64,000 nucleotides of DNA from Candidatus Hadarchaeota archaeon (GCA_964621445.1 CAZUNO010000010.1:25456-89455), one strand, 5' to 3'. Counted from the stretch's first letter, positions 24,233 through 41,591 are shown. Program-made: numbers and translations. Notes: generated by a model from the letters alone, not told the origin.

Positions 24233-24778
24233 TTGAACTTGACGCTGCTACCGCTAGGAGATCCGGCTTCAAATGTCCTGGACATGCTCTGTATTGGTGT
24301 GCCCAGATGCTTCTACTCGATTTTCACGACCTGCAAGATCCAAGAAGAACAGGACCTCCCAGGGGATGCATACAACCCGGATCGGAATCAATATGATTCC
24401 TCAATTGTATTGAACAACATTGGGCATACCCCCGAATTGCCAAAATCAGGTAAGCTATTAGGTGTCACCCAACGTGATATGTATGCTGGAGATCTCAATT
24501 TCGTGTTCGGCCAGGCCCAATGCCCGGGCTCTATAGCCGTGATCTCCACCCATCGTTTAATTGATACTGATAGGGAAGGGCTATTTCTGGAACGAAATTT
24601 GAAGGAGGCCACACACGAGATAGGGCACACTTTTGGTTTAAGACACTGCTCCAATCAAAGATGCGCCATGAGTTTTTCCAACTCCATCCTGGATGTTGAC
24701 AGAAAGCTGCCCCTTTTTTGCGCGAATTGCAGGAATATGTTGGGTCTAGAATCAAAAAGTAACGCGACATGTTCATAA
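24233..24778 (+). CDS. amzA: Archaemetzincin (Zn metalloprotease M54)
   Basis: AYNP.R.QY, LNFVFGQA, KEATHEIGHTFGLRHC...C.MSFSNS...FC..C. Confidence 0.92.
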   Translation: MNLTLLPLGDPASNVLDMLCIGVPRCFYSIFTTCKIQEEQDLPGDAYNPDRNQYDSSIVLNNIGHTPELPKSGKLLGVTQRDMYAGDLNFVFGQAQCPGSIAVISTHRLIDTDREGLFLERNLKEATHEIGHTFGLRHCSNQRCAMSFSNSILDVDRKLPLFCANCRNMLGLESKSNATCS

Positions 24779-24829
24779 CAATAATACTTTAGAAACATAC
24801 TAAAATATTCAATATAATGCAATAATACG

Positions 24830-24861
24830 GATAAATACGCCAAATTCTTGGCGTATTTATC
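24830..24861. promoter_or_regulatory. Perfect 14-bp inverted repeat (candidate operator or hairpin)
   Basis: GATAAATACGCCAA-ATTC-TTGGCGTATTTATC. Confidence 0.7.
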
Positions 24862-24879
24862 ATTTTTCACACTAAAATT

Positions 24880-24894
24880 CCGAAATATTTATAA
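24880..24894 (+). promoter_or_regulatory. Archaeal BRE + TATA box
   Basis: CCGAAA-TA-TTTATAA in an AT-rich tract; predicted start near 24917-24920. Confidence 0.65.
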
Positions 24895-24917
24895 GATAGT
24901 AGGCAACTCTCAATACG

Positions 24918-25153
24918 AGGATCCGACAGGGTGGATCTGGAGCAATCGGCCATGCAGACCAGCCTCAGTATGTGCCCAAATGAAGTGCCTAACGGAACCT
25001 TCGGAGAAGACACTCAAAGGCTGGTCAACCACGCCCCCCTCCTCGTCTGCCTAGTTCTCGGCTTCTTGTTTCCCTCCCTGCGATAATAGAACTCCCTTCC
25101 CTGAAACCAAATGCAGGGCCGCCCTGCCGTGATCCCCACTTCGATCCAGACCC
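24918..25153. ncRNA. Candidate structured RNA of unknown class (alternatively the mRNA of a 44-aa peptide, 24952-25086 +)
   Basis: Nested complementarity: GGGT-GGATC with GATCC-AG-ACCC; GGCCATGCA with TGCAGGGCC; GACCAGCCT with AGGCTGGTC; inner AAGTGCCT with AGACACTC. Confidence 0.4.
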
Positions 25154-25158
25154 AATTT

Positions 25159-26205
25159 CTATAGGGAGATTATCTCATCCTTAGCGAGGATATATCCTCT
25201 TATCTGGGCCTTTGGAGCATCGTCAACGATGTAATTAACGATGAGGATGGAGTCATCTTCCCTAATACACCACCCAGTGTACCCGGTGTCCGGAGAGGTG
25301 CTTCTATCATAATCTATGGGAAATATGCGACCTCCCGCACCATCTTCTAATCCGTCAAATAGCATCCCGGGGTCCATGATAGCTCCAAGAACTAGGGTGT
25401 TCTTCATCCCTTGTCCTATGTAGCATCTGTAGGTCACAAGAACCTTTTCTTTCCACCACTCGGCAACCGGTCTGTGGCATCCAGGTAGAGGAAGGGTTTC
25501 CGGCTTTTCCCATTCCCCCAGTTCCGGTTTCAATATGGCTTTGTATCCGGGTCGACCTAGGCCGGAGTTCTCCCTCATGATAAATAAAAGGCTCCCTTCA
25601 TGATTCAAAAGCGATCCCTCACATAGGTTCAGATCCGGATCAGCGGCCACGATTGTCGGCTGACACCAGTTCTTCCCATCAGATGATGTCCAGAGCAACT
25701 GTCGAAGATTTCCCGTATATGGTGAGAGATCATGAGTTCCCAGAGCTAAGGTGCCATCGGGAAGATCTCTCACCTTGTCCGGAACGATGCCCTGAACGCC
25801 GGTAGGTTCTGGTCCTTGCCAATTCTGACCGTCATTGCTCCACCACAGGTATACCTCAAATTCCCGGGTGGTTCTTTCGGATTCCGGCCATTTTGTTAAA
25901 TCGCAAGCCAAAACAAAACGATCCCCCATAACCTGCGAAATTCGAGGGCAGTTCCATCCTGCAGTCTTATTCACCGAGCCTCTGGTCTCGGATATTATCT
26001 TTCTCCGGGTCCAGGTGGAACCGCCATCGGTACTGGATCTGGTGACGATGCGAGTAAAATTACCTGGTACATGTCCCTGGCTCTCGCGATAAACGCAGAC
26101 CAGAGTTCCGTCATTCAAACTAACAACATCAGGAAAGCACTCGTAAACCGAGTCATTCCTGGATATCGTAAAGTACTCCAAGAGTACACCGTTACTCAGA
26201 AGCAT
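25159..26205 (-). CDS. BNR/Asp-box beta-propeller, exo-alpha-sialidase-like
   Basis: FPDV, YRES, SSTDGGSTW, SNDGQNW, SSDGKNW Asp boxes, DTGY. Confidence 0.82.
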   Translation of the reverse strand: MLLSNGVLLEYFTISRNDSVYECFPDVVSLNDGTLVCVYRESQGHVPGNFTRIVTRSSTDGGSTWTRRKIISETRGSVNKTAGWNCPRISQVMGDRFVLACDLTKWPESERTTREFEVYLWWSNDGQNWQGPEPTGVQGIVPDKVRDLPDGTLALGTHDLSPYTGNLRQLLWTSSDGKNWCQPTIVAADPDLNLCEGSLLNHEGSLLFIMRENSGLGRPGYKAILKPELGEWEKPETLPLPGCHRPVAEWWKEKVLVTYRCYIGQGMKNTLVLGAIMDPGMLFDGLEDGAGGRIFPIDYDRSTSPDTGYTGWCIREDDSILIVNYIVDDAPKAQIRGYILAKDEIISL

Positions 26206-26249
26206 CCAGACTAATCACCTTTTTGTGTGATCGCCCTGAGAGTCAGGCC

Positions 26250-41496: not shown

Positions 41497-41591
41497 TGGT
41501 GCGGCCGCCGGGATTTGAACCCGGGCTGTTGGCTCTCTTCGAGCATTACTCGTGGAAGGCCAAGGTCCTAACCAGACTAGACTACGGCCGC
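41497..41591 (-). tRNA. tRNA-Gly(TCC) with 18-nt intron (41535-41552) at position 37/38 and encoded CCA
   Basis: Acceptor stem GCGGCCG/CGGCCGC-A-CCA; anticodon stem TTGGC/GCCAA; T-loop GTTCAAATC; BHB: CTTC/GAAG helix with CA^C and AG^A bulges. Confidence 0.96.

Follow-up and report, generated by a model that had tools for sequence, protein, structure and literature searches.

What does a gap between two convergent genes hold when neither gene needs a promoter there, and yet a promoter is present? The question is raised by positions 24779-25158 of a 64,000-nt stretch of Candidatus Hadarchaeota archaeon DNA (GCA_964621445.1 CAZUNO010000010.1:25456-89455), hereafter the window, which are flanked by an M54 archaemetzincin gene and a BNR-repeat, sialidase-like gene. 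From the sequence alone, this gap had been proposed to contain either a structured RNA of a class not described before or a type I toxin-antitoxin-like unit. We find that this stretch contains a genuine small gene from an uncultured archaeal lineage, conserved and not described before, with a promoter, helices and an open frame that are preserved among its relatives. Our preferred reading, which we regard as having about an even chance of being right, is that this is an independent, family-restricted gene for a structured RNA bearing a small open reading frame (ORF), i.e., of the spRNA or dual-function type, with a masked ribosome-binding site.

Distribution of the element

A BLAST search over 41 genomes located the element in all four genomes of the window's family and in none of the 37 other archaea. 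With a covariance model of its central part, it was found in 4 of the 5 genomes of the phylum, which in the compared set is represented by five species genomes in two families; the sole genome of the second family, which is 98% complete, gave no match to this model. Within this five-species set, the element is confined to the family of the window. A scan with the pattern of the pyrimidine-rich core described below yielded 4 genome loci and 15 metagenome loci, 10 of the latter being true homologues and 5 spurious. The metagenome loci L019/L024, L025, L029 and L032, as well as L034, which came up in the genome scan on a Pararhizobium contig, are without promoter, GGAG-ATG and arms, and were dropped before counts were made. 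The L-numbers denote homologous loci in other genomes or metagenome contigs, and G000 is the copy in the window.

The alignments comprise 11 distinct homologues; there are 13 copies when the near-duplicates L023 (of L003) and L026 (of L004) are counted. BLAST against related genomes had been suggested as a check when the locus was first singled out, with the absence of a conserved homologue as one of several outcomes that together would refute the proposal; as stated, 11 distinct homologues exist. In its own genome the element is single-copy, which rules out a repeat or a miniature inverted-repeat transposable element (MITE), the only second match being a hairpin that matches itself. The extent of the conservation defines the extent of the unit, whose features are listed in Table 1.

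Table 1. Features of the element and of its immediate surroundings, in window coordinates.
Feature	Position	Strand	Remarks
M54 archaemetzincin gene	24233-24778	+	PF07998, E 5.6e-29
14-bp perfect hairpin followed by ATTTTTC	24830-24868	+	Arms 24830-24843 and 24848-24861, 4-nt loop
B recognition element (BRE) CCGAAA and TATA box TTTATAAG	BRE 24880-24885, TATA 24888-24895	+	Read in the sequence
Predicted transcript, ~223 nt	24918-25140	+	Start from the TATA distance, end from the closing helix
Closing helix, 5′ arm GGATCCGACAGGGTGG	24919-24934	+	15 pairs with 25119-25135, one of them G-U
GGAG, Shine-Dalgarno-like	24939-24942	+	13 nt ahead of the ATG; in 11/11 homologues
ORF of 44 codons including the stop, MQTSLSMC...APLLVCLVLGFLFPSLR	24952-25086	+	Read in the sequence; hydrophobic tail
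Inner helix P2, 5′ strand GACCAGCCT	24957-24965	+	Perfect pairing with 25018-25026
Inner helix P2, 3′ strand AGGCTGGTC	25018-25026	+	Perfect pairing with 24957-24965
Pyrimidine-rich core, nearly invariant	25031-25064	+	C run 25034-25039, CCTCC 25038-25042
Closing helix, 3′ arm CCGCCCTGCCGTGATCC	25119-25135	+	Pairs with 24919-24934
BNR-repeat, sialidase-like gene	25159-26205	-	Convergent to the M54 gene; PF13088, E 2.6e-10

Promoter and predicted transcript

The BRE and TATA box that had been seen to point into the tract are present in the window and are kept across the homologues. The sequence CGAAAnATTTATAAG recurs in 12 of the 13 copies, L030 carrying CGTAA in its place, and the TATA box stands 64-66 nt ahead of the ATG in all 13. 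The motif CGAAAnATTTATAA has only two occurrences in the 3.2-Mb genome. A transcription start about 30 nt past the first T of the TATA box would coincide with the beginning of the closing helix's 5′ arm; the length predicted for the RNA in relatives is 215-243 nt. T runs lie past the 3′ arm in L021, L027 and L030, and a weak T-rich stretch (25154-25159) follows the predicted end of the RNA in the window.

A covarying helix between the two ends of the predicted RNA

Across the homologues, the first 16-20 nt of the predicted RNA pair with its last 17-20 nt, forming a closing helix that sits outside the ORF. The two arms of this helix diverge between lineages, with mean column identities of 0.61 (5′) and 0.71 (3′). 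Cognate arms pair at -27 to -35 kcal/mol in all 11 homologues, compared with a mean of -20.7 kcal/mol for non-cognate arms. Among eight divergent representatives, the cognate partner came out on top by row in seven and by column likewise in seven (permutation p ~1e-4). By these sequence comparisons, the closing helix covaries strongly. An outer helix between TGGATCTGGA and TCCAGACCCA had been put forward previously, and 24932-24941 and 25145-25154 are indeed 90% complementary in the window; that register, however, is not supported by the homologues, and the supported closing helix, formed by 24919-24934 and 25119-25135, is in a different one.

Of the helices proposed within the tract, the perfect 9-mer that we call P2 was confirmed, and grows to 12 bp in relatives. 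In the alignment it comprises 12 pairs, four of which show changes on both sides, with 90.9% of cells paired. Over the structure as a whole 93.7% of cells pair, as opposed to 28-52% when the partner is slid. P2 joins codons 3-6 of the ORF to codons 22-25. The nested helix between GGCCATGCA and TGCAGGGCC exists in the window copy with 8 of its 9 positions paired. As for the 8-bp inner helix ascribed to the minus strand, full pairing in the window copy does occur on that strand only, but the helix has no counterpart in the homologues when the alignment is read by eye. Two further elements, namely helix B, in which the GGAG region pairs with a C/U tract past the core, and a hairpin in the 3′ untranslated region, are based on single-sequence folds.

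A core conserved irrespective of the reading frame

The pyrimidine-rich core is the least variable part of the element. In the alignment, 25 of its 39 columns are invariant and the mean identity is 0.91. Within the close group of homologues, a single one of the 39 core sites is variable, compared with 26 of 99 sites elsewhere in the ORF (Fisher p 0.0006); variation at third codon positions is absent from the core (0/13) and present outside it (9/33; p 0.035). The C run has six residues in 9 of the 13 copies and seven in the other 4. The copies with seven, which are in a different frame thereafter, keep the core DNA, the promoter and the helices intact. These comparisons show that the core is conserved as DNA whatever the frame, which implies a constraint at the level of the RNA.

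In predicted folds, the core is mostly unpaired in the L004 group; in L002, L003 and L030 it occupies the loop of a hairpin. Its CCTCC has the same letters as the 3′ end of 16S rRNA. A search of the genome for targets complementary to the core gave a best match of 13 nt with an E of 0.92, i.e., at chance level.

Start region and pairing of the GGAG

The ATG of the ORF is invariant among the homologues. In the organism's own genome, GGAG, GAGG and GGTG are enriched at -14 to -9 before gene starts, and the GGAG of the element, at -13, falls within this Shine-Dalgarno window; the 16S rRNA of the same genome ends in ...GGATCACCTCCT and contains CCTCCT at its 3′ end. The predicted pairing probability of the GGAG is at least 0.99 in 9 of the 11 homologues (0.99 in the window copy) and 0.75-0.76 in the other two. 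As a background, 150 GGAG-led genes of the genome have a median probability of 0.74, and 18% of them reach 0.95 or more. The predicted partner is either the CUCC of the C-run core or the C/U tract just past it. An example of the latter is L018, where GGAAAGGAGCA pairs with UGCUCCUUUCC; in L030 both sides are changed, and GGAGUUUCGGCC pairs with GGCCGGAACUCC (both are single-sequence folds).

The small open reading frame

The 44-codon ORF with a hydrophobic end is present as originally described. The Kyte-Doolittle mean over 15 residues peaks at 2.33, for residues 29-43. Among the homologues the ORF is 44-55 codons long, and most of its products end in a hydrophobic tail, APLLV(LF)CLVLG(F/L)..., which is present in 9 of the 13 copies.

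Several features of the alignment are those of a frame that is kept open. The distance from the ATG to the C run is 82, 76 or 73 nt, i.e., constant modulo 3, with more 6-nt and 3-nt insertions or deletions (indels) within the core region. Everywhere in the ORF but in the C run, the indels are of 3, 6 or 9 nt; by our count, 6 of the 8 indels in the ORF are multiples of 3 (binomial p 0.02). Frame 0 contains no stop in any of the 11 sequences, compared with totals of 3-13 for the other five frames. Finally, six close copies have their stop at one and the same position, where TAG and TAA alternate. Judging from this pattern, ribosomes probably read the frame.

Searches for known RNA and protein families

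The element belongs to no RNA family known to Rfam. At gathering thresholds, Rfam models matched nothing in the entire window but a transfer RNA (tRNA) at 41500-41591; a permissive scan of 24700-25300 gave frnS as best match, with an E of 0.065 and a score of 24.5 bits, the cut-off being 60. The weak matches were all located on the 24830-24868 hairpin or on the promoter, and there was no match at E <= 1 in 10 homologous loci. The earlier statement that the element is neither the RNA of the signal recognition particle (SRP) nor that of RNase P holds, since the genome's own genes for the two (Archaea_SRP RF01857 and RNaseP_arch RF00373) sit on other contigs, with 196.5 and 203.2 bits. In addition to these checks, the promoter, the covarying helix between the 5′ and 3′ ends and the inner helix in 11 homologues back the first of the two proposals made for the gap, that of a structured RNA of a new class with its own promoter.

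Neither does the peptide belong to a known protein family. Pfam contains no family that matches it even at E <= 1. A divergent Sec61beta or archaeal SecG (PF03911) was considered and rejected, given the lack of a Pfam match and the presence of the canonical copy on contig 17 (53.8 bits). A word-based protein search with the G000 peptide found nothing, and the same search with the peptide of L022 found only four same-family entries of 46 aa. A profile search of 1.84 billion proteins returned only three same-family clusters (45-46 aa) and one 484-aa repeat protein, which we judged spurious. A search of the ESM Atlas with the peptide gave no usable match, and no paralogues of the peptide were found in the organism's own genome.

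The tRNA at 41500-41591, on the minus strand, is 92 nt long, compared with 71 positions in the model, and this length suggests an intron.

Gene neighbourhood

Upstream of the element, a perfect 14-bp palindrome (24830-24861) had been noted. The inverted repeat is there, and is followed by ATTTTTC, but a regulatory site of the small-RNA unit is not the best account of it: the hairpin is best read as a terminator-like end of the upstream M54 gene, lying outside the RNA and marking the boundary of the unit. In archaea, T runs by themselves are thought to be sufficient for termination, and a hairpin with a T run looks unusual there.

Across the homologues the element retains its neighbours, namely the BNR gene and a GH2 glycosidase gene. 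L021 also shares the upstream M54 gene with the window copy. In L002, L004/L026, L020, L022 and L028, the GH2 gene lies directly downstream of the element and in the same direction, and the BNR gene is absent from that spot. In L021, L027 and L030, as in the window, a convergent BNR gene lies downstream, between the element and the GH2 gene. The presence or absence of the BNR gene is an insertion/deletion polymorphism of the locus. At 26217-26229 of the window, about 25-31 nt before the GH2 start, is a motif CACCTTTTT(C/G)T, which is kept in all copies read and also stands upstream of the GH2 gene in L002, L004, L020, L022 and L028. This motif is likely to be a promoter belonging to the GH2 gene itself, whose transcript would then have a very short leader or lack one.

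Proposed mechanism and alternative explanations

According to our preferred reading, an independent, family-restricted gene with a near-consensus BRE/TATA promoter would be transcribed from the plus strand into an RNA of ~215-245 nt, the start of which would pair with its end in a closing helix of 15-20 bp. Enclosed by this helix would be the GGAG and the AUG, a 12-bp helix and the C/U-rich CCUCC core. The RNA's own C/U-rich tract would mask the ribosome-binding site, and the frame of 44-55 codons would be translated only once the fold opens. In most lineages, the product would be a short peptide whose C-terminal segment is hydrophobic and seeks the membrane. As a speculation, the CCUCC core could also mask the GGAG of other mRNAs in trans. 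The gene may exert its function mainly through the RNA itself. It is from sequence that we infer the ends of the transcript, its translation, the masking and any action in trans.

A number of observations weigh against this reading. The strand, the ends and the translation of the RNA are predictions. The window copy by itself does not fold beyond chance on either strand, which was the outcome of a comparison with shuffled sequences suggested for the locus at the outset: the plus strand has a minimum free energy of -70.7 kcal/mol (z -1.13), and 26 of 200 dinucleotide shuffles fold as well; for the minus strand z is -1.53, and 10 of 200 shuffles do so. Per nucleotide, the energy of -0.313 kcal/mol is inside the genome background of -0.296 +/- 0.043. 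With regard to masking, the predicted partner of the GGAG varies between homologues, the GGAG:CUCC pairs are invariant and hence carry no covariation information, and the predicted pairing of the AUG is moderate (0.2-0.65). On these grounds, we regard masking as a reasonable prediction. The openness of the frame, too, is only mildly unusual for G-poor sequence, since some other frames contain no more than 3-4 stops in the 11 sequences together. In the close group, the variable sites are distributed 9/9/9 over the three codon positions; of the variable codons, 15 are non-synonymous and 6 synonymous. For the first 26 codons, the ratio of non-synonymous to synonymous polymorphism (pN/pS) comes to 0.89 when all pairs are taken and to 0.85 within the close group, and the two wrong frames give 0.62-0.94; by this measure, there is no selection at the amino-acid level in these codons. 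Lastly, in the copies with seven C (L003, L023, L027 and L030, 4 of 13) the frame shifts to ...APPPR..., and the hydrophobic tail is lost. The tail is therefore not essential everywhere. From these data we conclude that the dominant constraint acts on the sequence and structure of the RNA, rather than on the sequence of the peptide.

Another explanation is that the RNA is purely non-coding, i.e., a regulatory or protein-binding RNA in which the GGAG, the AUG and the open frame are by-products of RNA conservation in G-poor DNA. Its function would reside in the single-stranded C/U-rich core, which might, for instance, pair with purine-rich ribosome-binding sites of other mRNAs or bind a protein. 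The pN/pS of ~0.9, no better than that of wrong frames, the equal variation of the codon positions, a core kept at the DNA level despite the frame shift in 4 of 13 copies, the covariation of both the closing helix and P2, and the prediction of the core as unpaired (L004 group) or in a hairpin loop (L002, L003, L030) all agree with this explanation. We nevertheless consider it possible rather than probable, and place it below the preferred one. ORF indels of 3, 6 or 9 nt save at the C run, a frame 0 that is free of stops in all 11 sequences, the alternation of TAG and TAA at one fixed position, and a GGAG at the genome's usual spacing from an invariant ATG speak against a non-coding RNA, and the genome offers no convincing target for it (13 nt at best, E 0.92). 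A more elaborate version of the preferred reading, which we think rather unlikely, is an archaeal fold-gated mRNA for a small toxin or peptide, locked by the closing helix and by an internal CCUCC with the letters of the 16S anti-Shine-Dalgarno, which would mask the ribosome-binding site of the same RNA; the RNA would also be a regulator. Here production of the hydrophobic tail would depend on the run of six or seven C, acting as a natural switch or as a +1 slip site (CCC-C). The idea of a slip site is weakened by the seven-C copies, among which reading from the last C regains the full tail in L027 alone; L030 meets a stop after 10 residues, and L003 and L023 continue for more than 56 residues.

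That the locus is a type I toxin-like unit, in which 5′-3′ closure and a masked site keep a small membrane-damaging peptide untranslated, was the second of the two initial proposals, and part of it stands: the architecture is that of such an mRNA, with ends that pair and covary, a GGAG predicted to be paired, and a short ORF (below 60 codons) that encodes a hydrophobic segment in 9 of the 13 copies, the frame-shifted copies being explicable as decayed toxins. With its covarying closing helix and the predicted pairing of its GGAG, the RNA would fit a toxin mRNA that is silenced by folding; as to an antisense or otherwise complementary RNA antitoxin, the sequence of the locus points to none. In a sequence-based test, neither strand carries a conserved TATA-like stretch in the RNA or in the 150 nt downstream of it, and 6 of the 11 homologues have no A/T run of at least 6 there. 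Moreover, there is a single copy of the locus, which is syntenic and inherited vertically, paralogues of the peptide were not found, and the copies that have lost the tail (4/13) retain promoter, helices and core. We consider a toxin unit unlikely. Even less probable, in our view, is an ordinary gene for a small tail-anchored membrane protein in which the RNA features are incidental. It would have the requisite promoter, GGAG, ATG and hydrophobic C-terminal segment, and public protein sets do call the ORF as a protein of 45-46 aa (4 entries; 3 clusters). Such a gene, however, would not be expected to show a pN/pS of ~0.9, a core without synonymous variation, the loss of the tail in 4 of 13 copies or a covarying closing helix outside the ORF, and it is not the canonical Sec61beta, which is the one on contig 17 (53.8 bits). 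The least probable explanation of all is a cis-acting leader of the downstream GH2 gene. The arrangement in L002, L004/L026, L020, L022 and L028, where the element is directly upstream and in the same direction, would suit a leader, as would the lack of a T run straight past the 3′ arm in four of these loci. Yet in G000, L021, L027 and L030 the convergent BNR gene intervenes, L021, L027 and L030 have T runs past the element, and the GH2 gene has its own promoter-like CACCTTTTT motif in all copies read; the element is therefore not simply a GH2 leader.

Comparison with known systems

In two reports on Methanosarcina mazei, RNAs comparable to the one proposed here are described. In one of them, 21% of the small ORFs newly found to be translated are located in small RNAs (sRNAs) that had been known before, and sRNA154 is proposed to be dual-function (PMC11456600). 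The other report describes five pairs of an spRNA and an antisense RNA (asRNA), some with conserved stems; sP24, of spRNA24, is one predicted transmembrane peptide, and spRNA23, spRNA24 and spRNA33 are probably leaderless and paired with antisense RNAs (bioRxiv 10.1101/2025.10.28.685009). The sRNAs of M. mazei that bear small ORFs (spRNA or dual-function) are, by analogy, the nearest described category for the element, as a functional category and not as a family of homologues. Like spRNA24/sP24 and sRNA154, the element is a short archaeal RNA with a small ORF, intergenic and, here by prediction, independently transcribed; some members likewise have a stem that is conserved and a peptide predicted to be in the membrane, and conservation within a narrow lineage is a further similarity. 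There is, however, no relation in sequence, the profile search having given same-family peptides only. The element also differs from the spRNAs in having a ~34-nt 5′ leader with a GGAG, a long covarying closing helix between its 5′ and 3′ ends, and an invariant core that is independent of the frame, and in showing no sign of an antisense promoter.

In bacterial type I toxin mRNAs such as hok of plasmid R1 and aapA1 of Helicobacter pylori, long-distance pairing joins the 5′ end to the 3′ end, the ribosome-binding site is masked, and a small ORF encodes a hydrophobic peptide. The element resembles them in its paired ends, its predicted masked site and its small hydrophobic ORF. It is unlike them in that no candidate for an antitoxin RNA was found by sequence at the element, which is single-copy and syntenic, has its hydrophobic segment at the C-terminus, and has its frame shifted in 4 of 13 copies while the rest is undecayed; the host and the promoter, moreover, are archaeal. 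RNAIII and the Rsa RNAs of Staphylococcus are sRNAs with C-rich seeds that mask Shine-Dalgarno sites by means of UCCC loops. The conserved C/U-rich CCUCC stretch of the element, looped or single-stranded in several predicted folds, is reminiscent of these seeds, but our target search found none, the stretch is inside an ORF, and the organism is from another domain of life.

Very few structured or small-ORF RNAs are known beyond a handful of model archaea. In the literature on archaeal type I systems and dual-function sRNAs, we found no RNA of either kind from this phylum, although the RNAs of the lineage were not searched for by name. The element provides a clean case, with a strong promoter, a fold backed by covariation, and a frame that stays open even as the peptide changes in sequence. 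Should the fold gate translation, the "closed mRNA" logic of bacterial type I toxins would also exist in archaea; should the RNA be the effector, the element would represent a new family of RNA whose core resembles an anti-Shine-Dalgarno sequence. In both cases it is a candidate for inclusion in Rfam and in the annotation of small proteins.

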